Shown one piece after another: positions 14,229 through 28,847 of a stretch of DNA of 32,000 bases. Within the stretch, counting starts at the first letter, position 1. The number at the start of each line of letters is the position of its first letter. The stretch lies in NCBI GenBank assembly GCA_030614005.1, contig JAUWKS010000021.1:19345-51344 (forward strand), given 5' to 3'. The position numbers and the translations under genes are program-made. Source of the DNA: Candidatus Heimdallarchaeota archaeon (GTDB lineage Archaea > Asgardarchaeota > Heimdallarchaeia > JABLTI01). The notes below the pieces were generated by a model. The model did not search any database and was not told where the DNA came from. It saw nothing but the letters and a program-made list of their open reading frames with translations.

Positions 14229-17200
14229 TTAGCCTTCTAGTTCAGCTGAAGTTTTTAGTGCTCTAATTATTTGTTTTCTGATGTTTTTCACTGTCTTTAC
14301 ACCTAAACCTTTGACGGTTGATGTTTTTGCTATTTTTGCACTATGGAATTGTTTTACAGTATAAATTCCTGCTTTGTTCAGCTCTTCTTGCACCATTGGT
14401 GAAACGTGAGGTAATACTGCTACAGAAAGCATTTTTCGCATTTCAATGATATCTTCCTCTTTTACTCCTTTTACTGAACCCAATCTAGCGATACTTTTCT
14501 TGAAAATATCCCCTACAGATTTTACGCCCACCTTTGCTAATCGTTCTTCTGTTGTTTTGCCCATACCAGGAATTTTACTAATTCTAAGCGTAGGTTCTAG
14601 CATTCCTTTCGGTGGTCCTCTTACAATTTTAGTGGTTTCTTCAGCTTCTGCTTTTGGCTTCTTTGTGCCTAGAAATTCAGCTATAGAAGTATCTTTCTTC
14701 TCTGGTGATTTTGCTGGTTTTTTGGTTTTTGCAGATTTTTTAGCAGGTGGTTTTTCTTTAGTTGGTGCTACTTTTGTTGGTTTCTTGGCAGGTTTTTTCT
14801 TTTTCCTAGAAGGTACGGTCTTTGAACCTGGTGTCATCAGCAGTTTTTCTTCAATATCTAATTTCAATTTTGTAATCGTTAGTGAGCGTAATCCTCTTGC
14901 ATTTGTTAAACTATCATCATCTGCTTCGAAAAATTGTTGAACAGTAAATATACCCATTAGATTCAAATCACTTTTTCCTTCAAAATTAATTCTTGGCAAC
15001 ACTATAACATCTGTATTCCCACGATTGTCAGCTATTGTTTTTGCTCCGAGGCCTTTAATCTTTAGTAAGCGACTGTTGGCAACCATATAGAATTTGGCTA
15101 CTGTTTCAATACCTTTAGCTGATAATCTCGCAGCCATCGTTTTTCCTACACCACCCAATTCTTCAACTTCAGCATCTGCTTCAAGGAAGTCCGGAGGTGG
15201 AGTGGGCATTTTGACCTTAGTGGGTTGAGTGATAATGCCTTCATCATCCATTGATTCATCAATTTCTATTTCAGAGCTTTCTTCTCTAAGATTTTCAATA
15301 TCTAAATCAAGTAATGCTTTGATCAATTCAAATAAGATAGTAACCCGTTCTTCTGATAAGCCATGCAATTTGCTTAGCTCTTCTTCATCTGCTTCAAGAA
15401 ATTCAAGTATACTATAGACTTTGTTACTATGCAATTCCTCCACAGTTTTTTGAGTAATATTTGGTAAAACATCAACATTACATTTGGATTTTAGTTCAGC
15501 TATTATAACAATATTCAAACTGCTTTTGGTAAGTTCCTCATTTTCCATTAAGAAGAAATCTTTAATTGTTTTAACACCACGAGCACGAAGTGATTTCTGA
15601 GTTGCCGGACCAACACCAGGGAGAGTTGTCACTGAATCCATTCCTTCGTAAAGGTCCATACCATCAATTATTCCTCTATCTCGAGCAAATTCATCCAGTG
15701 CTTTAGCACTCACAGATTCAACCAATTCATCTTTTGCTAGCTCAGGTAACTCAAGAATAGCAACTAGAATTTGTTCTGCTTGATCTAATGCTTCTTCAGA
15801 TAATCCAAGAGAAATTAATTCTTGCATTTGTTCATCATCGATTAAAATGAGGTCTTGCAGAGTCTGAATATCGTATCTATCAAGATTAACACCCTCAATT
15901 GAATCTATAGGTAGAGCTTCAACTGGGATGGGGTTCTTTGGGAGAAAAATCGAACCATCTCTTTGTTTTAAACAATTACTAAATTGTGTGGAACTGAACA
16001 TAAATGGAAATTCATCTTCATCCATTTTTCCAAGCATTTGTCCAACAATTGATGAAACAGTAGGGGCGTATTTATCAAAGATTTTCATTCTTCTAGCTGC
16101 TTGTTCTTTTTTCTTCAAAGCTCTTTGGAAACTCATTAGTTTCCTTCCGGCTTTTTGTAAACATAACCTAAGTTCTCTTCTAATCTCATCTACTTCAGCA
16201 ATATATTCCTTGCTTGTTTCAGGGAAGGGTATTTTTGTACTAACTAATGACACGGCAAATATTATTGGATCATTATTGAGATTGGTTTTATAGTTGGACC
16301 AATTAATACCCTCAATTGTTTTCTTTATCAAATCATTTCCTTCACCAAATAGTAAAGGTATTCTGTTTGCAAAACGCATTAATTTGTATGGTGCACTAAT
16401 GTTTTCTCCACCATATCCTATAGCAACTTCAACCTGAAAAGCATGTCCACTGTAGCTTGAAGGTGGTCTGCCTTCTGAACAGCTGAATTCGGGTTGGTAA
16501 ACATCTTCCAAACCGGCTGCTAAATTTTCATGCCCTAATGGTGACAAACATTTACCATCGGGTGGGAAAAATTTAACCTTGGTAAATCCTTCATGAATTA
16601 ATCTTCGAAGCTCCATTTCATCTAAATTCAGGGGGTTTTTACTTGCCTTAATTTTAGATACTTTTAGAACTTGGGCTGCAGTTTTATCACCGATTCTCTG
16701 AAAATGGGTTTTCAAAAAATTCTTCATATCTTTACATTTTGTTCTAGAAATCTCGCTTTTTATTTGATTAATATCTGTACCAATTGGATGCAGTGGTACT
16801 TCAATTGGTGGTTCAGGAATTTCATCAACAGTTCTAGTATGAAAGATAGGTTCATCGGGATTGTCAGGAGTAGTAATAGTGAATGAAGCATATGGTGTTA
16901 TAACAGCCATTTCTTCTAAGTATTCAAAGATATATCTTTTGGAGCGTCTCCAAGTGCCTGCAAAACAACAAGTAACTTCTGTTCCATGTACTTTTAGTTG
17001 GTTCTTTGATTTACCAGAATATTTTGTTGAATCAACGATTTCAGGAGCGTTCTTAACAATATCAATAAACAATTTGTAATGACTGGTAAATTCAGCTGAT
17101 TTTTTCTTAGAAAGAGCTAATCGTGATTTAATTTCAAATGGAACTCGAATAGTTGATTGAGAATAAATTAAAACCATTTTTGCTCCTAAGCCGAAGCGAC

Positions 17201-17570
17201 CGCGTGATTGTCGTTCTCCATAATTGGAACCAGTAAGTACTCTTCCAAATAATTTTGGAATGTCAGCATGACGAATGCCAATTCCATTATCTCGTACAGA
17301 CAATCGAATGAATTCATTACCAGATTCCTCGTCGTGTCTGTAATCTTCAATACCCATTAACTCGCCGATTTCTTCTGCAGACATCAATTCGATTAGAATA
17401 TTGATATCAGGTAGAATTCCCCCTTTTTCAGCAGCATCTAATGCATTTTCGACTAGTTCTCTTATGCTTGTATAAGTAGATCTGGTAGGATTATCAAATC
17501 CTGCAATTGCTTTATTTGCTTCAAAGAATTCTGCAGCAGACCTTTCTATTATTTTCTCACGCGCTATCAT
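14229..17570 (-). CDS. top6B: DNA topoisomerase VI subunit B with a long C-terminal HhH-repeat extension
   Basis: GHKL motifs RELVENALDA, VRDNGIGI, SRGRFGLGAK and HGTEV; H2TH (FQRIGDKTA); transducer RFANRIPL. About 570 extra aa carry repeated GxG-type HhH motifs. Confidence 0.96.
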   Translation of the reverse strand: MIAREKIIERSAAEFFEANKAIAGFDNPTRSTYTSIRELVENALDAAEKGGILPDINILIELMSAEEIGELMGIEDYRHDEESGNEFIRLSVRDNGIGIRHADIPKLFGRVLTGSNYGERQSRGRFGLGAKMVLIYSQSTIRVPFEIKSRLALSKKKSAEFTSHYKLFIDIVKNAPEIVDSTKYSGKSKNQLKVHGTEVTCCFAGTWRRSKRYIFEYLEEMAVITPYASFTITTPDNPDEPIFHTRTVDEIPEPPIEVPLHPIGTDINQIKSEISRTKCKDMKNFLKTHFQRIGDKTAAQVLKVSKIKASKNPLNLDEMELRRLIHEGFTKVKFFPPDGKCLSPLGHENLAAGLEDVYQPEFSCSEGRPPSSYSGHAFQVEVAIGYGGENISAPYKLMRFANRIPLLFGEGNDLIKKTIEGINWSNYKTNLNNDPIIFAVSLVSTKIPFPETSKEYIAEVDEIRRELRLCLQKAGRKLMSFQRALKKKEQAARRMKIFDKYAPTVSSIVGQMLGKMDEDEFPFMFSSTQFSNCLKQRDGSIFLPKNPIPVEALPIDSIEGVNLDRYDIQTLQDLILIDDEQMQELISLGLSEEALDQAEQILVAILELPELAKDELVESVSAKALDEFARDRGIIDGMDLYEGMDSVTTLPGVGPATQKSLRARGVKTIKDFFLMENEELTKSSLNIVIIAELKSKCNVDVLPNITQKTVEELHSNKVYSILEFLEADEEELSKLHGLSEERVTILFELIKALLDLDIENLREESSEIEIDESMDDEGIITQPTKVKMPTPPPDFLEADAEVEELGGVGKTMAARLSAKGIETVAKFYMVANSRLLKIKGLGAKTIADNRGNTDVIVLPRINFEGKSDLNLMGIFTVQQFFEADDDSLTNARGLRSLTITKLKLDIEEKLLMTPGSKTVPSRKKKKPAKKPTKVAPTKEKPPAKKSAKTKKPAKSPEKKDTSIAEFLGTKKPKAEAEETTKIVRGPPKGMLEPTLRISKIPGMGKTTEERLAKVGVKSVGDIFKKSIARLGSVKGVKEEDIIEMRKMLSVAVLPHVSPMVQEELNKAGIYTVKQFHSAKIAKTSTVKGLGVKTVKNIRKQIIRALKTSAELEG

Positions 17571-17607: not shown

Positions 17608-17877
17608 AAGGACAAGCTTGACACTATGTCCTTCTCTACATCCACCCGGGAATCCCTTCCACCTAGGGATTATTTTCTTATTTCAGATGCCTCTGAAAGA
17701 GTGAATTAAGAGCGAGTTTTGATTCAAATACTAAATTTAATTTCTTAAACTTATTGCTGTTGAATCCGCTCAAATTTCGTCCTTCATTATTTCACTTTCT
17801 CATTTCAAAGGGTTCTTTAATACTTTACCGTTCAAGCAAATTATCTTAATAACATTCAATTGTTAAACTACAATTGA
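17608..17877 (-). ncRNA. Candidate structured RNA downstream of the RAMP operon
   Basis: Five stems: 17608-14/17627-33, 17651-57/17665-71, 17681-87/17692-98, 17710-27/17760-71 (bulged) and 17856-63/17870-77. GC is 31/60 in 17611-17670. Strand and transcription are inferred. Confidence 0.35.
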
Positions 17878-17887
17878 TATACTCTGC

Positions 17888-18904
17888 CTATGTTCCGAGC
17901 CTTCTCTTCTTCGAGGTGGTTGCCCTCTCAGAGTCAGCATTGCTCATGGTCAAAGAAGAATGCATCTCAGCATCCATAGCAGTATCAAGTTCTTCTCTTT
18001 TACTTGCCGATAGTGAGATAGTTCCTTTTGATATTTTTAATCTTTTCTTATAGTAATCATTTATTGCCAGATTTACCATTAGCAACAAATGGTTTCTTAA
18101 ACTACTAATTCCATAATCCATTGATTCCACTATTCGCTCTAATTCTTTTGAATGATAGATGTAATTATATAATCTATATGGAGAATGTTGAACTTGCTCA
18201 AGGTCTTGTTTTAAAAGTTTGAAATCTATTTCTCCATTCTCCCGATTATATCGACTTGGAACTTTGAATCGCTTCTTTCTACTGATTGAAGATGCAAGTC
18301 TATCGTAATACTGCAAAATTGGCAAGAGAGCATTTGTATGTTCTGCACCATTATGATGATTCACACAAGCAGTTCTAATTTCTTCATCTTCGATTTGTAA
18401 CTCTTGATAGATTTTACTTGGATGTCGCTCTGTATGAACGAAATCGTGAAGCATTAATACTTTAAGTAATTTTAACAATTTTTCAGGATAATTTACCCCT
18501 AATCCTTTCCTAATTTTGAATTCCTTTCTTTGGTTCGCTTTCGTATGAATAAAGGACTCAATTTTACATTCAAGCCATTTCACTCGACCGAAACCTTCAG
18601 AGGAATAACTGCCAAGAAAACGATTGGTCATAAAGGAAGAAATTTTGGTAAGAAGCTTCTCTGTATTATACCCTACACAGCTCACTTGCACAAATCCTCG
18701 ATAGGCATGTAAAACGGTCGGTGCTCTTGATTCCCCTTTCACCAATTTGCTAAAGGAAGTCAATAGTGGTTTTTTTTCTCCGTTACGATCTCCTATTACC
18801 TTTATCCAACAAGCTCCTTTCTTCACGAGTGGTTTGGAAAGGATGATTGGTGTATCTAAGCGACCAATTAATGTAACCTTTTTCTTTAATTGTGGTTCTG
18901 CCAA
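17888..18904 (-). CDS. RAMP (Cas5-like) domain fused to a Cas10-type HD nuclease fragment
   Basis: N-terminal ~120 aa end in a RAMP glycine-rich loop (FLGSYSSEGFGRV). HD motifs follow (LMLHDF...VNHH...YYDRLASS), then SSLRNHLLLMVNLA, which resembles the Cas10/Cmr2 'SL-x-DH' segment. No palm or GGDD. The TTG start overlaps the cas7 stop. Confidence 0.75.
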   Translation of the reverse strand: MAEPQLKKKVTLIGRLDTPIILSKPLVKKGACWIKVIGDRNGEKKPLLTSFSKLVKGESRAPTVLHAYRGFVQVSCVGYNTEKLLTKISSFMTNRFLGSYSSEGFGRVKWLECKIESFIHTKANQRKEFKIRKGLGVNYPEKLLKLLKVLMLHDFVHTERHPSKIYQELQIEDEEIRTACVNHHNGAEHTNALLPILQYYDRLASSISRKKRFKVPSRYNRENGEIDFKLLKQDLEQVQHSPYRLYNYIYHSKELERIVESMDYGISSLRNHLLLMVNLAINDYYKKRLKISKGTISLSASKREELDTAMDAEMHSSLTMSNADSERATTSKKRRLGT

Positions 18905-19830
18905 GCCTTTCTCACCTTGCTTAATTCTTCGTTCAAGTTCTCCGCTCTTTCTTCCTCAATGATAGCGATTTTTCCATTACCATTCTCTTGTCCCAACTTT
19001 CTCTCAAAAACAACCCTTTCAAAAGAAATGTCTCTCATCTCAAGACGACCATACCCGCTTTTTCCGCCTCTTCCTAAATGAGTTATTCCGAAAATTCCTT
19101 TTACGAGTAATCCTAGCAACCATTGCGGTAATTCTTTAGAGAATTCCACATAGAATTGAAACTCTCCGGAGAAATATTGTTCAGAGAAATCCTGAAGTGG
19201 TTTTTTGTCTCTTCTGGATGAGTGGCGATTCTCTGTTGAAATATACACAAATGAAAGACCGGTTTGTTTGGTTATTTTGTCCAATGGTTTGTCTGTCTGA
19301 ATGATAGCATCGCTCCAGACTCTAATAGGGGATTCTTCACCTAACATTCCGAATAATTGTCTAATGGCACAAGGATTTTCTCCACAAGCACCCATGAGAT
19401 GTTCGTGTTCAAGAAGAGTCGATTTACCAGTTCCTTGAAATCTTTCCTTTAAAGTTGGAGAACAATAATCAATTCCTTTCTGGTGAAGAATATTCATTAT
19501 ACTATGACGAATAGCACCACGTATTCCTTTAACCACTCGAGAGACTCCTTTATCATCTTTGAGGATTGTTAGTTGGACTTTCGCATCAGCTTTTTTCCCT
19601 TCTGCTTTTACTCGCAAATCATTGAAATCATCAAAGATACTATCTTTGTTTTGTCTCAAGAAATCCTCTAATTCTGCTACTTTAACATTGGTCTTTCCAA
19701 TATATTGGTAGGGTATTTCTCCTCCTCTCATCAAGTAAGAGCTTTTTCCACTACTACTATTCAGTGGTTTCGCCCACCACGCTTGAACTTTTACTGATAT
19801 TCTGTTGAACTCGTTTTTCATAATAATCAT
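18886..19830 (-). CDS. cas7: Cas7-group RAMP protein (Csm3/Cmr4-like)
   Basis: KGIRGAIRH (the 'SSLKGALR' helix), ACGENPCAIRQLFG (Zn-binding C..C..LFG), thumb region ENRHSSRRDK, and G-loop HLGRGGKSGYGRL. Confidence 0.86.
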   Translation of the reverse strand: MIIMKNEFNRISVKVQAWWAKPLNSSSGKSSYLMRGGEIPYQYIGKTNVKVAELEDFLRQNKDSIFDDFNDLRVKAEGKKADAKVQLTILKDDKGVSRVVKGIRGAIRHSIMNILHQKGIDYCSPTLKERFQGTGKSTLLEHEHLMGACGENPCAIRQLFGMLGEESPIRVWSDAIIQTDKPLDKITKQTGLSFVYISTENRHSSRRDKKPLQDFSEQYFSGEFQFYVEFSKELPQWLLGLLVKGIFGITHLGRGGKSGYGRLEMRDISFERVVFERKLGQENGNGKIAIIEEERAENLNEELSKVRKAWQNHN

Positions 19831-20108: not shown

Positions 20109-21302
20109 ATGTCTATTGACAATATTTTAGGACAGATTAAACTAGCGGAAGAAAATCTCTTCGAAGAAGATCGACATAAAAGACAAGAGGCAATTCATAC
20201 ATTTCCTCGAATTTTAAATGCTAGAAATTATACAGTAAGAGAAGCATTGAGAGTAAAAGGACTAATTAAACCAATTATCCCAAAACTTATTGAGATAATG
20301 AAAACTGATGCTGATATTGGTTTACGCAAAATTGCTGCAAAATCTTTAGGTGATATGCCAATCTATGATGGTATCTACAAAGAGTTGCTTGAGATTTTTA
20401 AGCTTGGAGAGATGGAGAATGAATTAAGTTGGGCGGTAGGTGAGAAATTATTTAATTTTCCAGATTCTTATCTTGATATCAAAGAAATACTTCTTGAGAT
20501 GCTACAATCGAATAACCATAATCATAGAATACTAGGTTTAGCAATGATTCGAAAATATCGGGAAAGCTCAGGTCGTTCAGGAAACGAATATCTAGGTTCT
20601 GTTTCAAGAATTCAACTTGAGAAGGATTGGTTACTAATTCTCCGTAATTTAGTCCGAGAGGCTAAAACTGAAGAAGATGCTCAACCTGCCTATGTTACTC
20701 TTGAAAAAATCTCTCCCGATAAATCAGCTGAACGAAAATTATTCCAGAAGGAATTATTATACAAAGTTATGTATGAAATTCTTGTCAAAATCCAACCTGA
20801 AATCCAAGTGCAGTTAACTAGAATTATGGAATTAACAACTCCTCTAATACAAGAACATGGTAAAATCCCCAAAAGAGCTGAATTAACTAACCTTGATTAT
20901 ACCAAAGAACTCCATGAGGCGACAATAAAGGAACTTGTTCAAAACGAAGATATCAAAGGAGAGTATTTTGAATTGGAGCAAGTTTTTGTCAAAAAAGGCA
21001 AAGAAATAAAGTTTTCCTTGACTTCATCCAAAATTGCTAAGAAATATTTGTGCAACAATTGTGGTTCCTCTATTAAGCATGAGGATCAAACTTGTTCAAC
21101 CTGTAAAGAAGAAATCCTCAAATGTAATGTTTGCAAACTGCCAATTTCCTTTGGAGAAGAAATAGGTATATGTAAACATTGTAAATCTAAGTCTCATTTG
21201 AGCCATCTTCAAGAATGGGTGAAAATAAAGGGAAAATGCCCCACTTGTCAAAAAAAGTTGCAGTCGGAAGAGATTATAACACTTTCTAAGAACTCAAACT
21301 AA
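20109..21302 (+). CDS. HEAT-repeat protein with C-terminal zinc ribbon and RING-like domain
   Basis: HEAT-like units (DADIGLRKIAAKSLGDM, NHNHRILGLAMIRK), then CNNC...CSTC and CNVCKLPI...CKHC...HLSH..EW...CPTC. Confidence 0.75.
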   Translation: MSIDNILGQIKLAEENLFEEDRHKRQEAIHTFPRILNARNYTVREALRVKGLIKPIIPKLIEIMKTDADIGLRKIAAKSLGDMPIYDGIYKELLEIFKLGEMENELSWAVGEKLFNFPDSYLDIKEILLEMLQSNNHNHRILGLAMIRKYRESSGRSGNEYLGSVSRIQLEKDWLLILRNLVREAKTEEDAQPAYVTLEKISPDKSAERKLFQKELLYKVMYEILVKIQPEIQVQLTRIMELTTPLIQEHGKIPKRAELTNLDYTKELHEATIKELVQNEDIKGEYFELEQVFVKKGKEIKFSLTSSKIAKKYLCNNCGSSIKHEDQTCSTCKEEILKCNVCKLPISFGEEIGICKHCKSKSHLSHLQEWVKIKGKCPTCQKKLQSEEIITLSKNSN

Positions 21303-21365: not shown

Positions 21366-22937
21366 TTGCTAAAGCCACTTTCTTGGACAAATGACCCATT
21401 ATTATTTGATAGTGAACCTTCTCCAGTTAATAAGTGGATAAATGCTAATGAGCTTATTCAACAGAACCGGAGTAAAGAGATTTTTCTCCCAGAAAGTCAA
21501 CAGTTACATCTCTATCCTATAATGGTTCGTAGGAATGATTTTGTTCGGTTGAAATCTTCTGACCGAATCATGGCTCGATTTCCATTCATGGAAATTAGCG
21601 AGGAAAGTCAAGAACGAATCATGGATAAGATCCTTCTTCTCTCTGAATTAACTCGAGACTACTTTTACAAATCTATCAATAAATCAATTCTTCAATGGAA
21701 AGAGGACATTCTAAGATATCTAAAGCGAGGAGCAATTCCTTATCCAATAGTAAGGAGTTTCTTCGAATTAGAACCAAGTTTTTTTTCTATGTATAATAAG
21801 ACCTCTCTTCACTTCACAAGTGCTCGTGGAGAAGAGTTCAAGATGCCGACCACATTAACGAAAGAGCTTGCCTATCTTGCGGGGATGGTCAATGGTGATG
21901 GTAACTTGCAAAAATATACTCTACGAATCGTCGACTTTTCCATTACGAATATCAAGCAGCTCCAAAAGATGTTCCAGGATTATTTCGCACAAACAGGGAA
22001 CATTCTCTTTAAAACACCCAACAGTCCGGAAGTAGTGATAACGAATCTCTGGGTGGTAAGGTTATTCTCATTCTTAACAGGACAACCAATTGTAATGAAG
22101 AAGTATGCCCATCTAGGTGAACCATTGATCTTCAAACAAGAGCTTTATCGTTCCTATTACTGGTCTGGAGTGATGGATGCAGATGGGAGTTACAGGAATA
22201 GGAATGTTAAATTTGTAAGTGCTTCTATAAAGTACGTAAAAGATTTCAAAAAATTTCTTTTTGAAAATAAAATAGACTCTAAATTGACTGAGAGAGAGGA
22301 TAATACAGTTATCTTGTACATCCCAGCTAGATTCTATACACAGTTATCGAAATTGTTGACTTGTTTACACCCAGAAAAGAAACACGAGTTTAATAAATTG
22401 AAAATAACTCCCTATCGCTCAGCAACTTTTTTTGCGGGATTCAAAAAATCAACTCTAGTCAATGGTTATTTCAATTTCAGACTTATAGGTAATCTAAGTG
22501 TAGCTAATTTAGGAGACACAATTCGTCAATTCCGAGGAAAACAATCAAGAAAAGCTTTTATCGAAAAAGTATCTATTAGTGAAAGAGCATTACAAAATAT
22601 AGAAAAAGGGAAAATGAGTATAAACATTCTGCTTTTAGATGAAATATTAAAACAAAGAAACCAACTGCTGATGTCTTTTCTCTCTCAACAAGAAGCAAGT
22701 CTTTATCACATTCGAAGTTCAACACCTGTGAAACTCGCTACACAACCGAACACACAGCTCGCATCTCTACTGAAATCATTACTCTTTTACAAGAAATGTC
22801 TCAAAATTCCGAATAGTAGCGATAAACTTGCTAAAGAACTAAAAGCTTATTTTCAAGTAACTATAAAAAACAATCAAATAACCAACAAATTACTTTTACT
22901 ATTCTTTTCTACTTTTTGTGAGACAAAACTTTTCTAA
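21366..22937 (+). CDS. Free-standing double-LAGLIDADG endonuclease-like protein with an XRE-type HTH
   Basis: LAYLAGMVNGDG and YWSGVMDADGS motifs; HTH segment LGDTIRQFRG..SRKAFIEKVSISERALQNIEKG; no intein splice-junction motifs seen. Confidence 0.85.
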   Translation: MLKPLSWTNDPLLFDSEPSPVNKWINANELIQQNRSKEIFLPESQQLHLYPIMVRRNDFVRLKSSDRIMARFPFMEISEESQERIMDKILLLSELTRDYFYKSINKSILQWKEDILRYLKRGAIPYPIVRSFFELEPSFFSMYNKTSLHFTSARGEEFKMPTTLTKELAYLAGMVNGDGNLQKYTLRIVDFSITNIKQLQKMFQDYFAQTGNILFKTPNSPEVVITNLWVVRLFSFLTGQPIVMKKYAHLGEPLIFKQELYRSYYWSGVMDADGSYRNRNVKFVSASIKYVKDFKKFLFENKIDSKLTEREDNTVILYIPARFYTQLSKLLTCLHPEKKHEFNKLKITPYRSATFFAGFKKSTLVNGYFNFRLIGNLSVANLGDTIRQFRGKQSRKAFIEKVSISERALQNIEKGKMSINILLLDEILKQRNQLLMSFLSQQEASLYHIRSSTPVKLATQPNTQLASLLKSLLFYKKCLKIPNSSDKLAKELKAYFQVTIKNNQITNKLLLLFFSTFCETKLF

Positions 22938-23025: not shown

Positions 23026-23057
23026 GCTTTAAAATGACTTTCTTGCTGTTTTAAAGC
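23026..23057. repeat. 9-bp perfect inverted repeat (possible operator or hairpin)
   Basis: GCTTTAAAA (23026-34), a 14-nt spacer, then TTTTAAAGC (23049-57). Confidence 0.5.
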
Positions 23058-23088
23058 ACTTAGAATCGACCTTTGATTTATGCTTTCA

Positions 23089-23192
23089 GACTTTTTTGCG
23101 AGAAGTGGTTTTTTCTCATATTCTAGTTATTCCTCGGTAAGTTTTATGATTTTTTTGTGAGTAATCTGTGAGCTTTTTGGACTTTTTTGTGA
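23089..23192 (+). repeat. Three copies of the 13-bp motif GAYTTTTTTGYGA
   Basis: GACTTTTTTGCGA at 23089-23101, GATTTTTTTGTGA at 23148-23160 and GACTTTTTTGTGA at 23180-23192, upstream of the wHTH-cas1 operon. Confidence 0.7.
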
Positions 23193-23242
23193 TTTAGTAC
23201 TTTAAATGGTAATTTTGTCAAGTAAATGAACAAGGGATATTT

Positions 23243-23983
23243 ATGTCGATTCATGATCCATTGATTCTAAAAACAAGTTCGAAGTATTCATTACCTGAAT
23301 TTAACTCTAAGGTTAAATTCACTTCTGTAATGGAAGAAGTGCTGTACACACTCTTAACTTTCTTCATCCTAAGTGGTGAATCAAAATTTACAAATGTGGT
23401 GAATGATTTGATAGGTGTACTTGATCGTTCCCAAAATGCTATTGGCTCTGCCTTAAAATCTCTTGAACAGTTGGAGCTACTAGCTTATTATCGAGATGGT
23501 AGATTTAGAACCGTCGAACTACATCTAGAAAATGATTTCCTGAAAAGCGTTACTGCAAGATTCTTTGGAATAACTGATTTTACGAGTATGAAATGCAAGA
23601 AATTGAAGCAAATGCTCTTTGGTTTTTATCCAATACTTGATTTTGAGCGAACCATGACAATGTTTCAAAACGAAACTGAGCGTTTGGTTTTGTTGGTGGA
23701 TGATTACCAACACTTGTTTGATTGGGTTAATAAAATTGAGGAATTGGAAAGATTAGCGAAAATTACTCACTCTACTGATGATACTGTTGATGACAATCCA
23801 ATTTTATTATTTATCGATAAAATTGTATGTGCGATAAAATATAAAAAAATGCAACAAACTGCTGATCTAACATTTCAAGAATTATCTGAAATCGTTAATG
23901 AGATTGTTTCAGAATTTCAAAAAATTCCTCCTTGGTCAAATGATGCTGTAAGTGGAAGGTGTAATATTTGGACTCACATATAG
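23243..23983 (+). CDS. Winged-HTH domain protein
   Basis: FTNVVNDLIGVLDRSQNAIGSALKSLEQLELLAYYRDGRFRTVEL wHTH pattern with a helical C-terminus; overlaps the next gene by 16 nt. Confidence 0.68.
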   Translation: MSIHDPLILKTSSKYSLPEFNSKVKFTSVMEEVLYTLLTFFILSGESKFTNVVNDLIGVLDRSQNAIGSALKSLEQLELLAYYRDGRFRTVELHLENDFLKSVTARFFGITDFTSMKCKKLKQMLFGFYPILDFERTMTMFQNETERLVLLVDDYQHLFDWVNKIEELERLAKITHSTDDTVDDNPILLFIDKIVCAIKYKKMQQTADLTFQELSEIVNEIVSEFQKIPPWSNDAVSGRCNIWTHI

Positions 23984-25986
23984 GAGGATTTGTTGTGAGT
24001 TATACAAAAAACGAGCTCAGAGAACGAATTTTCTCACTTTTCACTCAGGATGAGATCGGCATGGTTGGTCTCTCTAACAGAGAAGTTTCAGAACTAATTG
24101 GCAAGGAATCGAAGGATACCAATCAAGTATTGAAGGGATTAGCTGATGCTGGCAGGTTATCACGCAAGAAGATTAAACGTGGTGTTGATCCAAAAGTTTT
24201 CGTTTACTTTTCACCATCTTTTGAAGTAATTGATGAAGCTCCCGAAAGGCTTTGTAATAACTGCCAAAGACTATCTGGTTTAGAGAAATGTATTTTGCTT
24301 AGATTAGTAAAAGAAACAGCTGCTTGGGCTTTACGTGATGACTTAAAAGCACGTGCAAATGCAATTAGTTTGTTAGGTGTTGAAGGTTGTGACTTTCATG
24401 ATCCTAGACAAAAAGGTCAGTGTAAGTGTAAAACGATGAAGGATTTTCTCAACACTAATACTGATCCTGTTACCTTTGAAGTTCGTTGCCCTATAGATCG
24501 ATGCCGTGAAGTCATTGATGAGCTCAGTATTTCTCTAGAAAAAAAGAACATAGGTGCGAACACTTTGTATTGTCCTCATTGTGGTTCTCCTATCAATTTC
24601 ACCTTCAACCATAGTTTAGGGAGATACAATGTTCAATACTATGATAGTCGTTTTGATATTATGCAACGAGATTATAAACTGATCACAGGTATGGATCTTG
24701 AGAGTAGGTATGTTTCAGATCGTTCCCATGGTTTTTCTCTTGTAAAAGAAGAGAGTTTTCATCTTGATTTAGAGAATAATGAAACTATCTATATTGGAAA
24801 TGAATTAACCCCTACTGAGTTTATAGATTCAAAAGATCTTGCTTATTTTTCTTTGAATCAATTGGATTACATAGCGGTAAAGGATGCTGATGATTATCTC
24901 TATCTAAGAGACAAATTGCATGAAATTGATCCTGCGACAAATAAATCTCTCTATTATAATATTGAGCTTTTACACTCAAGTAAACCAATTGAGAGTACAG
25001 AACCGTCATTAAAGGAAATCGGTGGTAATGAGATTCTAATCGCAACAGGAGCAATATTCTTTCCGATGTTTTTCTCCAATATTCTTGACCGGAGAGCAGT
25101 TCTTAAAAAGAAAATGGTTGATATGACAGATACTGAATTTCGAAGTGATTTCAAAAGCGCTCTAGCACGTTTTGATAGGAATATCAAGAAATATCGCACT
25201 CCTTGGAACATTTCCTCTCGAGAATGGCAACAGAATGAAGGTGGTTTTGCTAGCCTAATGGACACTCCATTCAAACAAGAAGCTGAGAAATATGGATTCG
25301 AGAATCTTTCGAGAGAGAAATCTAGGATGGTCCGAGGGGAACCTTTCATGCATTATGGATTATTCACTGCTCGAGCACCTAAAGCGAGTTTTGAAAATGG
25401 TGTGAATAAAGTAACTGATAGATACATTAAGGAAAAAATCTATAATGATCTTTCTGTTCCGTGGAATGATTTGCGAGGATGGTGCCATAGAAAATACTCC
25501 TTTGGTTTGTTTCTGGATTATATTGAACCACCTAGAGCAGTTGCACCATTATGGATAAATGAAGCTATTAGAAATAAAGAGATCACTCCGAATGATTTTA
25601 AGATAGAGCGAGGAAAAAGGTTTGAGAAATTCTATTATATTAAACCTAATTCTCATGCACACGAAGTTGTGAAACGAGTAAGCAATCAAATTCTCTGCAC
25701 AAGATTTACTCTTACTACTGGCTCGGAGCTTACAATGAAACAGATGATAGAGAAATCTGTTACTCAATTAAAACAACTCTTAAATCGACTTTCTAACTCT
25801 ACTGTTGAATTATTTACAGAAAACAGAATAAATGGTCCTGTAAAGACCATCTGGAAGAAACTACAAGAAACAAACAACAAGAACTACTTGACTGCCAAAG
25901 AATATCAAATGTTACAAAAACATGTTCAACATTTCTTCCGAGAAGAATTTTCTTTTGAACCTTATACAATTGCTGAGATTCAGTAG
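23968..25986 (+). CDS. cas1: Highly diverged Cas1-family integrase with N-terminal wHTH and Cys-rich Zn-binding region
   Basis: C-terminal half has QNEGGFA (Glu codon 25237-39) and RGWCHRKYSFGLFLDYIEPPR. His (25486-88), Asp at +10 and Glu at +13 match the E. coli Cas1 H208/D218/D221 spacing. N-terminus has a wHTH and CNNC, CDFH, CKC, CPIDRC and CPHC motifs. Confidence 0.8.
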   Translation: MDSHIGGFVVSYTKNELRERIFSLFTQDEIGMVGLSNREVSELIGKESKDTNQVLKGLADAGRLSRKKIKRGVDPKVFVYFSPSFEVIDEAPERLCNNCQRLSGLEKCILLRLVKETAAWALRDDLKARANAISLLGVEGCDFHDPRQKGQCKCKTMKDFLNTNTDPVTFEVRCPIDRCREVIDELSISLEKKNIGANTLYCPHCGSPINFTFNHSLGRYNVQYYDSRFDIMQRDYKLITGMDLESRYVSDRSHGFSLVKEESFHLDLENNETIYIGNELTPTEFIDSKDLAYFSLNQLDYIAVKDADDYLYLRDKLHEIDPATNKSLYYNIELLHSSKPIESTEPSLKEIGGNEILIATGAIFFPMFFSNILDRRAVLKKKMVDMTDTEFRSDFKSALARFDRNIKKYRTPWNISSREWQQNEGGFASLMDTPFKQEAEKYGFENLSREKSRMVRGEPFMHYGLFTARAPKASFENGVNKVTDRYIKEKIYNDLSVPWNDLRGWCHRKYSFGLFLDYIEPPRAVAPLWINEAIRNKEITPNDFKIERGKRFEKFYYIKPNSHAHEVVKRVSNQILCTRFTLTTGSELTMKQMIEKSVTQLKQLLNRLSNSTVELFTENRINGPVKTIWKKLQETNNKNYLTAKEYQMLQKHVQHFFREEFSFEPYTIAEIQ

Positions 25987-25998
25987 GATGATGAGAAA

Positions 25999-26685
25999 AT
26001 GACAAAAAAACATGCAACCATAACAATATATGATTCTCTAAGAGATTTGAATAGAGTTATTGCTCTTATACTGGTAGATGGTGATTCAAGAATTCGAATA
26101 ATGGAAAATAGGCTCAACTATAGATCTGTTTTACACAAAGTTGTTTCTAAAGGATTCATTCGTACACATGAGATAGTTACTAATTGGCTAATAGAATTAT
26201 TTGAAAATGGGGAAACAACTTCTCTAACGTTTCATGAGATAATGGATAAACTACCTTGGTCCTGGGATACGACTCGAGAGTACTTTGATTCTTTAGAAGA
26301 AGAAGGTATTGTACAATATTCACGTGATTCTCAAGGAAGAAAAATTTGCACCTTAACAATTGAAAGTGAGTCTAGAGCAAAGCAGATAGATAATTTGCTC
26401 AAGTTTTCTAAAAGAAATGAAACACACTCACTAAATACTATTTCAGAAGCAAGAAAGGAATTTGCCAAGTATAATACAAAATTGAATGAATGGTTTTGTA
26501 TGAACTATAAAATGAATGATCTGAGTTCTCAGATTAAGCAAGCCCCATTATCTACAGTTGAAAAATTCATCGAGACTATAACCAAAATAATCAATATATC
26601 CAAAGAAGAAGATCTAAGATTGAATCTATTAGACTTTTTGAAGCAATACCCATTATTGCTATATTCAATAAGGAAGGTTGAGTAG
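25999..26685 (+). CDS. Winged-HTH domain protein
   Basis: SLTFHEIMDKLPWSWDTTREYFDSLEEEGIVQYSRDSQGRKICTL wHTH pattern; operonic spacing (12 nt upstream, 2 nt downstream). Confidence 0.68.
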   Translation: MTKKHATITIYDSLRDLNRVIALILVDGDSRIRIMENRLNYRSVLHKVVSKGFIRTHEIVTNWLIELFENGETTSLTFHEIMDKLPWSWDTTREYFDSLEEEGIVQYSRDSQGRKICTLTIESESRAKQIDNLLKFSKRNETHSLNTISEARKEFAKYNTKLNEWFCMNYKMNDLSSQIKQAPLSTVEKFIETITKIINISKEEDLRLNLLDFLKQYPLLLYSIRKVE

Positions 26686-26687
26686 AT

Positions 26688-27452
26688 TTGGTAGTCAGGG
26701 AGTACGAATTAAATCTTAGTGCAACAGAATTTCTATATTTTCTAGATTGCCCCCAGAAATTCAGAATTTATCGTATCCTTAATCCTTTACCATACAAAGA
26801 AAATTTCTTGAGTAGTAGAAGGTCATTATCTTCTTACAAAATGCGAGGATACCAGGGAAAGAAGAGTGATGGTATCGATTATCATAATTTCTTTGAAACA
26901 TTTCATAGAAAGTATGCAAATGTAATCAGTCAAACAATACCCCCAGATGAAGTATGCAAGGACAATGTAAAATTACTTTACTGGACTGAACAACAGAAAA
27001 ACTACTTTACAGCAAAAGAGGATTGTTACTGGTATCCAATTGATAAAGAAATTCGATTAATGACTGAAAAGAAAAGAGGGGTGATAGATTGTATAGAATT
27101 ATGTGAAAAAAGGAATGGTTTTAGGATTATAGATTATAAACCAACATTTGATTCCAATGATCATCTTCTATTGCTGTTTTATGCAAGTTTATTCAACGAA
27201 TATCGCTTAGAGAATAAAGATGAAGGAGAATATGATTTTGATGTTTTGGAGGTTGGTTGTTATTATTATGAAATGGGTGTAAGAAAGGTCTATAATTTGA
27301 AAGAAGTAAACATTTTAGCATTTGAAAGAATTTTTGTTAAGTCATTGGAAAAAATTCTTAATAATGAATTCTTTTTAGATAAAAGCTCTTGTTGGGGTTG
27401 TATTTTCATACGTATCTGTAAGATAGAAAAGAGTAGAGAATATAGATCTTGA
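26688..27452 (+). CDS. cas4: Cas4-like PD-(D/E)xK nuclease with Fe-S ligands
   Basis: N-terminal CPQKF plus C-terminal CWGCIFIRIC give four Cys; GIDYH; E.RL...RGVID; IIDYK. The QxxxY motif is degenerate (LLLFY). Confidence 0.85.
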   Translation: MVVREYELNLSATEFLYFLDCPQKFRIYRILNPLPYKENFLSSRRSLSSYKMRGYQGKKSDGIDYHNFFETFHRKYANVISQTIPPDEVCKDNVKLLYWTEQQKNYFTAKEDCYWYPIDKEIRLMTEKKRGVIDCIELCEKRNGFRIIDYKPTFDSNDHLLLLFYASLFNEYRLENKDEGEYDFDVLEVGCYYYEMGVRKVYNLKEVNILAFERIFVKSLEKILNNEFFLDKSSCWGCIFIRICKIEKSREYRS

Positions 27453-28100: not shown

Positions 28101-28847
28101 ATTATTGCAGATTTATATAACGACGGTGAAATAGAGATAATTTTCGGTTCTGAAAATAGCAATATAATCTGTCTAAACAGTCAAGGGAAAAAACAATGGT
28201 CATATAGTACAGATGATTGGATATTTTCTTCACCGGCAATATATGATTTAGATAAAGATGGCTATAAGGAAATTTTAATCGGTTCTTATGATAAAAACAT
28301 CTACTGTTTAAATTATGATGGTTCTTTGTCTTGGAAATTTGCCACTGATAATCTAATTTTCTCCTCTCCCTCTGTTACTGATTTAGAGAATGATGGATTT
28401 ATGGAAATTCTTTGTGGTTCTGATGACAATTATCTTTATTGTTTGGATTATTTGGGTAAAGAAATTTGGTCGTATAAAACAGATAATATGATTTTTTCCA
28501 GCCCTTTAATTGCTGATATTAATAATGATGATTTGTCGGAAATAATCATCTGTTCTACAGACAATTTCGTTTATTCCTTATCTCTAACAGGTGTTTCTCA
28601 ATCAGGGGATAACCCTTGGTATTGTTTCAGAGGTTCTATTCTCCATACCGGGTGGATGGATTCTGACAATGATTTCATAGATGATCTAACTGAAAGCTAT
28701 CTTAGTGATCCCGATTATCCTCTTACGAACAACATCTTCCCCTCATTTGACTTGTCAAATAAGAACTCAATAATAGTAGTAACTCTGGTATCCATAACAC
28801 TAATATATATACTTCGAACGAAGAGAAAAAGAAAACGCTTCGTTTAA
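28101..28847 (+). pseudogene. FG-GAP/VCBS-like beta-propeller surface protein, 5'-truncated
   Basis: The frame is open from 28080 with no start until 28326. Four repeats: ADLYNDGEIEIIFGS, YDLDKDGYKEILIGS, TDLENDGFMEILCGS and ADINNDDLSEIIICS. It has a W.CFRG...HTG motif and a C-terminal TM plus KRKRK, but no signal peptide. Confidence 0.78.

Follow-up and report, generated by a model that had tools for sequence, protein, structure and literature searches.

A highly diverged Cas1-like protein with N-terminal DNA-binding-type modules in a probable ARAMP-type island of a Heimdallarchaeota genome

Cas1 writes immune memory into CRISPR arrays and moves casposons. The subject of this report is a gene for a Cas1-like protein in a stretch of 32,000 nucleotides from a Candidatus Heimdallarchaeota archaeon (assembly GCA_030614005.1, contig JAUWKS010000021.1, positions 19,345 to 51,344 of the forward strand; this whole stretch is called the window, and positions are counted from its first letter). 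It stands second in a row of four closely spaced genes on the plus strand, which encode a winged helix-turn-helix (wHTH) protein of 246 amino acids (aa), the Cas1-like protein, a 228-aa wHTH protein and a 254-aa Cas4-like protein. A gene for a LAGLIDADG-like protein lies upstream of the four, and a pair of RAMP-type genes lies beyond it on the minus strand. Judged from sequence comparison and predicted structure, the Cas1-like gene appears to encode a genuine Cas1 homologue that is extremely diverged, apparently active and extended at its N-terminus by DNA-binding modules. With good confidence, it is taken to be the Cas1-family subunit of an array-less, CRISPR-derived Asgard island of the type known as ARAMP.

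The Cas1-like protein and its domains

The maximal open reading frame (ORF) spans positions 23968-25986 of the plus strand and comprises 672 codons from a TTG, in agreement with an earlier reading made from the sequence alone (hereafter the sequence-only reading). The true start is most likely the GTG at 23995, because each of the 17 database homologues starts at the position that corresponds to residue 10, and an AGGAGG box lies upstream of this GTG. The gene would then extend over 23995-25986 and its product would have 663 aa rather than 672. Two numberings are in use here: residues counted from the TTG at 23968 (672-aa numbering) and residues counted from the GTG at 23995 (663-aa numbering).

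The metal-binding set of E. coli Cas1 consists of E141, H208, D218 and D221. The sequence-only reading had proposed a matching set in the C-terminal half of the Cas1-like protein, and every position and spacing that it gave is exact. The catalytic Glu codon (E424, 672-aa numbering) lies at 25237-25239 and is followed by an H-x9-D-x2-E motif (H507/D517/E520) at 25486-25527, in which H507 starts at 25486, D517 stands at +10 and E520 at +13. All four residues are kept in every full-length homologue. In a family alignment of 26 sequences, which takes in the distant subfamily A2, all 26 share the H, D and E; at the first acidic position 19 have E and 7 have D. Conservation in homologues, which had been named as a check, is thus borne out across two subfamilies. 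The distance from E424 to H507 is 83 residues, as had been read; it had been set against 67 residues in the E. coli protein, and in the canonical reference sequence used here the corresponding distance is 66, so that the Cas1-like protein is longer by 17.

The family is small and is hard to connect to Cas1 by ordinary sequence searches. In a search of 5.8 billion proteins, 17 homologues were found, all of about 665 aa and none with a Pfam domain on record; the two that are named are each called 'hypothetical protein' and come from an Asgard group archaeon and a Candidatus Heimdallarchaeota archaeon. Neither the Cas1-like protein nor any of these 17 members matches the Pfam Cas1 model PF01867 (cut-off 22.3 bits) or an NCBIfam model. 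An exhaustive profile search of 1.84 billion representative proteins returned 28 matches, with no canonical Cas1 among them. Some weaker sequence links exist. The PADLOC Cas1 model matches residues 506-605 of the Cas1-like protein (E 5.5e-5) and independently matches 13 of the 17 members, and a 1247-aa relative from another genus has a direct match to Pfam Cas_Cas1 (E 0.003).

Profile-profile comparison by hhalign gave a further link. The 26-sequence family alignment was compared with an alignment of 29 canonical Asgard Cas1 sequences and gave a probability of 92.6 % (E 4.4e-7) over 213 columns, against 0.1 % for a reversed Cas1 alignment and 3.6 % for an unrelated family. In this comparison E424, R449, H507, D517 and E520 were paired with the Cas1 columns E, R, H, D and E/D, each of which is conserved in 29 of 29 sequences. 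The proposal that the catalytic residues are apparently intact is therefore upheld, in that these residues are not only kept in the family but also fall on invariant columns of canonical Cas1. Between the conserved Arg and Asn, the alignment opens a gap of 14 residues in canonical Cas1. The Cas1 beta domain was not detected when hhalign was run on the region before the catalytic domain; this part of the protein is recognised only by structure comparison.

In structure prediction, a full-length model built from 17 sequences was of low quality near the active site (pLDDT 65), and a domain model of residues 186-663, built from a broader alignment, reached a pLDDT of 86.7 and a pTM of 0.80. When the domain model was compared with the PDB by Foldseek, all of the top 50 matches were Cas1 or casposase, with whole Cas1 chains aligned over about 385 columns; the best were a casposase (6opm_A, E 6.4e-9) and a type I-C Cas1 (8d3p_B, E 1.3e-8). 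An independent all-against-all search by VIA ranked Cas1 and casposase structures in all of its top 12 places (Z 20.7 to 11.0), followed at Z 7.7 by generic helical bundles. The first of these was A. fulgidus Cas1 (4n06_B, Z 20.7), with 288 residues aligned between model residues 60-477 and chain residues 7-345, and the casposase 6opm_A was aligned over chain residues 7-340 at Z 18.8. Both Cas1 domains are predicted to be present, since the VIA alignment spans model residues 60-477 and a whole Cas1 chain. The check by structure prediction and Foldseek that had been suggested from the sequence alone thus came out in favour of Cas1, with the C-terminal part modelled as a Cas1 fold that matches only Cas1 and casposase.

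The model and the alignments together yield a domain map (663-aa numbering). The first 75 residues or so (23995-24219) probably form a wHTH, with an order of three helices and two strands predicted at pLDDT 70-83; sub-threshold Pfam matches to HTH_20, MarR_2, HTH_11 and others were found in several family members, and against the PDB this part gave weak Z-alpha matches with E about 1. Residues 87-196 (24253-24582) make up a region rich in cysteine, in which eight cysteines are invariant in the alignment: C87, C90, C99, C132, C165, C170, C193 and C196, which correspond to C96, C99, C108, C141, C174, C179, C202 and C205 in the 672-aa numbering. The region probably holds two zinc-ribbon-type sites; several family members have sub-threshold Pfam matches to zinc ribbons, and the CPHC pair is kept also in the distant subfamily. 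A short beta-hairpin and a helix follow at residues 197-244. The Cas1 N-terminal beta domain is placed at residues 245-330 or thereabouts (24727-24984) by the VIA and Foldseek alignments of the model, and the C-terminal alpha-helical catalytic domain at about 332-663 (24988-25983) by hhalign, PADLOC and the structure matches.

The N-terminal modules had been foreseen in outline. The sequence-only reading had described a wHTH and a Cys-rich part of DNA-binding type, and these assignments now have modest support from the predicted secondary-structure pattern and from sub-threshold Pfam matches that are consistent across several members. Its count of roughly 11 Cys/His in CxxC-like clusters had to be reduced to the eight invariant cysteines; C152 and C154 (672-aa numbering) are not conserved. 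Its figure of about 330 extra N-terminal residues was too high: by VIA structure alignment the Cas1 fold begins near residue 254 (672-aa numbering), which leaves an extension of about 245 aa, and the Cas1 body has grown as well, to about 420 aa.

When compared with canonical Cas1 proteins, such as that of A. fulgidus (4n06) and that of the type I-C Cas4-Cas1-Cas2 complex (8d3p), the Cas1-like protein has the same two-domain fold, the same E/H/D/E columns and a Cas4-type nuclease encoded alongside. It differs in an identity of about 12 %, which lies below Pfam detection, in its additional N-terminal part and in a catalytic domain that is larger by about 100 aa.

The cassette and its neighbourhood

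The operon opens with the gene for the 246-aa wHTH protein (23243-23983, plus strand), which has weak matches to HTH models of the ArsR/MarR type and occupies the same position in all orthologous loci. Downstream of the Cas1-like gene, the 228-aa protein (25999-26685, plus strand) has weak wHTH and Csa3-type matches, and its position too is kept in orthologous loci. A predicted complex of the Cas1-like protein with this 228-aa protein received a score of 0.00, and the fold of the 228-aa partner is itself uncertain. The last of the four genes (26688-27452, plus strand) encodes a Cas4-like PD-(D/E)XK nuclease of 254 aa, with a full-length match to Pfam PDDEXK_1 (E 1.2e-9) above the cut-off. One N-terminal Cys, a C-x2-C-x5-C motif near the C-terminus and an IDYK motif give it the pattern of Cas4, and the gene is kept in all four loci of this kind that were found in the source genome.

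Upstream of the operon lies the gene for the 523-aa LAGLIDADG-like protein with an HTH (21366-22937, plus strand). It matches Pfam LAGLIDADG_3 at 26.1 bits (cut-off 22.5), its Atlas neighbours are LAGLIDADG_3 families, and the gene is present in all four loci. Between this gene and the operon, a conserved non-coding region (23040-23242, plus strand) carries three copies of the motif GAyTTTTTTGyGA, at 23089, 23148 and 23180. The region resembles the sequence upstream of orthologous operons in five other loci, and it could serve as a promoter, as a set of operator sites or as a target for integration.

The RAMP pair is encoded on the minus strand. The Cas7-like RAMP (314 aa, 18886-19830) matches Pfam RAMPs at 28.3 bits (cut-off 22.1) and PADLOC Csm3 (E 2.9e-7), and paralogues of it are found in two of the other three loci (contigs C9 and C122). 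The second protein (338 aa, 17888-18904) matches no library model. Its conserved motifs and its synteny suggest that it is of the RAMP type, and it would be the candidate for a Cas5. An invariant LHD with a downstream D and H in 4 homologues, together with weak HD leads from Atlas (score 0.80), is consistent with a C-terminal HD nuclease domain. No Cas10 or Cas8 was found among the library matches in the window, and no conserved RNA was seen 3' of this RAMP-HD gene by simple alignment, blastn and nhmmer against the paralogous loci, which is not a covariance search.

Two further genes of the neighbourhood deserve mention. A 397-aa protein encoded between the RAMP pair and the LAGLIDADG gene (20109-21302, plus strand), preceded by a 61-aa ORF, has weak double zinc-ribbon and RING-type matches; it lacks a counterpart in the other three loci and may be variable cargo. 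On the other side of the RAMP pair lies the gene for topoisomerase VI subunit B (14229-17570, minus strand), whose 1113-aa product ends in a long tail of helix-hairpin-helix repeats (Pfam HHH_5, IMS_HHH). This long form, with frames of 1108-1155 aa, occurs in most genomes of the window's genus.

Paralogous loci, island variability and mobility

Contigs C67, C9, C78 and C122 of the source genome each carry one such locus, and the Cas1-like proteins encoded there are, in this order, 100, 41, 28 and 27 % identical to the query. The order wHTH, Cas1-like, wHTH, Cas4-like is kept in these four loci and in seven loci elsewhere. In the source genome the LAGLIDADG-HTH gene is present in four of the four and the RAMP pair in three. 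Two of the loci are more closely connected: a block of 6.5 kb that contains exactly the five cassette genes is common to C78 (5576-12137) and C122 (1325-7872) at 87 % / 75 % identity, with unrelated flanks. It could be a recent duplication, or the trace of two strains binned together. Directly beside the C78 cassette lies a TnpB/Cas12f-like gene (locus L006, 4263-5456, minus strand; PADLOC Cas12f, E 2.9e-36), and genes for defence ATPases of the mad3/AriA type are found nearby.

Within the phylum, the Cas1-like family was found in 15 of 399 genomes, mostly in the window's genus, where eight of the ten other genomes carry one to four copies each. Long relatives, with 843-1311 aa (L077-L080), occur in four Asgard genomes, three of other genera and one of the window's genus. 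Their C-terminal part matches the catalytic domain of the Cas1-like family (profile E 5e-18 to 3e-29); a wHTH is found in one of them, and the protein with the Pfam Cas1 match is among them. Their N-terminal regions are much larger and different, and their neighbours differ as well, for example a DEAD-box helicase or a subtilase. The idea that these long proteins are fusions with the neighbouring wHTH proteins was ruled out.

The island is variable, as it is absent in seven congeners and degraded in the closest relative. An orthologue of topoisomerase VI-B is present in all eleven genomes of the genus, and in seven no island gene lies within the 7.7-18 kb on its upstream side. In the closest relative (G195, topoisomerase VI-B 97 % identical) all that is left of the island is fragments of the Cas4-like gene and of the two RAMP genes. 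This relative lacks about 7.7 kb, with the Cas1-like gene among the lost sequence, and homology breaks at window positions 17842/17846 and 27456. The remnant (L063, G195:C39, 9981-11675) is inverted and truncated, and 5.5 kb of other genes separate it from topoisomerase VI-B. Decay is also seen in individual Cas1-like genes. The orthologues in L041 (G199:C6) and in G198:C16 have one in-frame stop each (TGA and TAG), and in L041 the frame is split into ORFs of 364 and 287 aa; such copies are either decaying genes or the product of assembly errors.

Such variability, together with intact catalytic residues, raises the question of whether the Cas1-like protein is a defence nuclease only. It would then cut DNA without integrating it, beside the Cas4-like, HD and LAGLIDADG proteins of a non-programmable innate defence island. 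As is typical of defence genes, the island is present in some congeners and absent in others, and some copies have decayed and contain in-frame stops; several genes of the island are of nuclease type, and the flanks of the C78 copy, with their ATPases and TnpB-like gene, resemble a defence island. The structure entry of A. fulgidus Cas1 is, moreover, titled for nucleolytic activity. Yet the protein retains the full two-domain integrase fold and stands in a tight operon with a Cas4-type end-processing nuclease, a combination that adaptation modules use for integration, and a pure nuclease is accordingly considered quite improbable.

Mobility is another possible reading of the locus. Casposases carry an added HTH-type module, which is C-terminal in family 2 casposases. 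The sequence-only reading had proposed that the N-terminal modules of the Cas1-like protein supply end or target recognition, as in a transposase. On this account the protein would be a casposase-like transposase that mobilises the island or the cassette, and its wHTH and zinc modules would bind the ends of the element specifically. The absence of the island upstream of topoisomerase VI-B in seven congeners and its degradation in the closest one, the presence of one to four family copies per genome in the genus, the five-gene block with unrelated flanks and the TnpB-like gene adjoining the C78 copy all fit such an element. Some Asgard Cas1 homologues may associate with new mobile elements, according to the summary account in one source (PMC8730458). 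Against such an element, most paralogues are only 27-41 % identical, and must therefore be old rather than products of recent transposition.

The structural likeness to casposase is close: the fold is the same, and the casposase bound to its integration product (6opm) is the best Foldseek match. Nevertheless, the scores of casposase and of CRISPR Cas1 are similar, so the fold cannot tell the two apart. Casposase has been described as acting without Cas2 (PMC8464041). The HTH of the Cas1-like protein is N-terminal, and at its locus no polB, terminal inverted repeats or clear target duplication were found. For polB, no polymerase family was seen in the Pfam matches of the 20 larger ORFs of the window or in the PADLOC matches flanking the C78 copy. 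Terminal inverted repeats were found neither at the ends of the island nor at those of the C78/C122 block, whose ends are free of repeats. The 9-mer TTAATAACA occurs at both breakpoints of homology and was considered as a target duplication. It is a weak candidate: its length of 9 is at chance level (shuffle mean 8.9), a third copy lies at 28844, and the left copy falls inside sequence that the G195 remnant also has.

Excision joints were sought in the contigs of four cold-seep metagenome DNA runs. No contig in the four runs joins across the ends of the island; the search returned one opposite-strand joint with a side of 31 nt and one skip of 555 nt that lies outside the island. A transposase-like role of the Cas1-like protein is thus not supported by terminal repeats, a convincing target duplication, polB or excision joints, and we regard it as rather improbable.

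A different kind of autonomy is suggested by the C78 copy, which lacks RAMP genes, and by the block copied between C78 and C122. Because of these two observations, the five-gene cassette (LAGLIDADG-HTH, wHTH, Cas1-like, wHTH and Cas4-like) can be imagined as an autonomous DNA-insertion machine that needs neither an array nor the RAMP pair. It might insert DNA into a non-repeat target, for example the T-rich region upstream of its own operon, or it might move itself by a homing-type cut of the LAGLIDADG protein and joining by Cas1. This proposal is unlikely as it stands.

Array-lessness, ARAMP membership and meaning

The genome was searched for the usual companions of Cas1. No CRISPR repeat family was found in the window, and no array in the 3.6-Mb assembly, where no 18-mer recurs at least three times at a spacing of 45-110 nt. 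No Cas2 was found by PF09827 in the source genome (90 % complete, 126 contigs), while control genomes were positive, and no conserved gene of Cas2 size is present in the four loci. A Cas1 without a Cas2, as the sequence-only reading implied, is supported by this result. A canonical Cas1 was likewise not found in the source genome by Pfam, and canonical Cas1 proteins were found in 59 of 151 genomes of the phylum. In these respects the source genome, with its Cas1-like gene but no detected Cas2 or array, differs from the setting of canonical Cas1.

A further alternative is an ordinary adaptation integrase whose CRISPR array is missing from the assembly or stands at some other place in the genome. 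The incompleteness and the contig number of the assembly, the frequent failure of arrays to assemble and the canonical Cas1 genes of other genomes of the phylum would allow for it. Set against it are the 3.6 Mb without an array, the missing Cas2 and canonical Cas1, and the four loci, none of which has an array on its own contig. The ARAMP systems, to which the island would belong, are moreover described as array-less in the summary accounts consulted (PMC12669027; PMC8730458). An ordinary adaptation role is hence the least probable of the alternatives, and highly improbable in itself.

Membership in ARAMP is the preferred reading. ARAMP has been characterised, in the summary given by one source, as a group of Asgard CRISPR derivatives in which nucleases and a Cas1 of a distinct form accompany diverged homologues of Cas5 and Cas7 (PMC8730458). 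The 2025 classification lists HRAMP and ARAMP as array-less and type III-derived, typically with HNH or PD-(D/E)XK nucleases (PMC12669027). The island has each of these traits: its host is an Asgard archaeon, as are the sources of the named homologues; a diverged Cas7-type RAMP stands with a putative second RAMP and without a large subunit; a PD-(D/E)XK nuclease is present without an array; and a highly diverged Cas1 lies in the locus. Compared by summary descriptions only, the island and the published ARAMP loci with their Cas1 homologues show no demonstrable difference, save that the C78 cassette is without RAMP genes. The Cas1-like gene thus joins an already known class of array-less Asgard CRISPR derivatives, and no new kind of system is proposed. 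The ARAMP group was reportedly catalogued computationally by Makarova, Wolf, Shmakov, Liu, Li and Koonin (2020, CRISPR J 3:156).

Several points weigh against the assignment of the gene to Cas1 and to ARAMP. The Cas1-like protein has no Cas1 match in Pfam, NCBIfam or the sequences of the PDB, whether as a single sequence or as a profile, and its assignment to Cas1 depends on profile-profile comparison and on comparison of predicted structures. Assembly of CRISPR arrays is often unsuccessful in metagenome bins, and the array-lessness of the assembly is therefore provisional. The C78 cassette has no RAMP genes on its 20-kb contig, so the Cas1 cassette need not be accompanied by the RAMP pair. 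Identity with the published ARAMP family is drawn from summary passages of two secondary sources (PMC8730458; PMC12669027). Finally, no activity, partner or substrate is on record for any member of the Cas1-like family, and no experimental work on ARAMP-type Cas1-like proteins was found in the literature searched. With these points taken into account, an ARAMP-type Cas1 subunit is still held to be likely.

How might such a Cas1 work? The results above show the fold, the conserved catalytic residues, the gene cassette, the lack of an array, of Cas2 and of canonical Cas1, and the variable presence of the island; an enzymatic activity, a set of partners and a DNA substrate, in defence or in another role, we infer. 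In the most likely mechanism the Cas1-like protein would form dimers by way of its Cas1 beta domain, in the manner of other Cas1 proteins, and its own wHTH and zinc modules would recruit it to DNA, in place of Cas2 or of the casposase HTH. It would then perform metal-dependent cleavage and joining of DNA. The Cas4-like protein, presumably a co-transcribed Fe-S nuclease, would trim the DNA ends, and the two small wHTH proteins might serve as regulators or as architectural subunits. The Cas7-like and RAMP-HD pair would act as a separate effector.

The Cas1-like family is tiny, with 28 matches among 1.84 billion representative proteins, and is confined to Asgard archaea. Within it, a Cas1 with intact catalytic residues persists, in up to four copies per genome, without an array, Cas2 or transposon ends. 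That the cassette is separable from the RAMP pair is among the most useful results of this analysis. With the domain map, the catalytic residues, the set of partners and the boundaries of the island in hand, biochemical tests of an ARAMP Cas1 are now easy to design.

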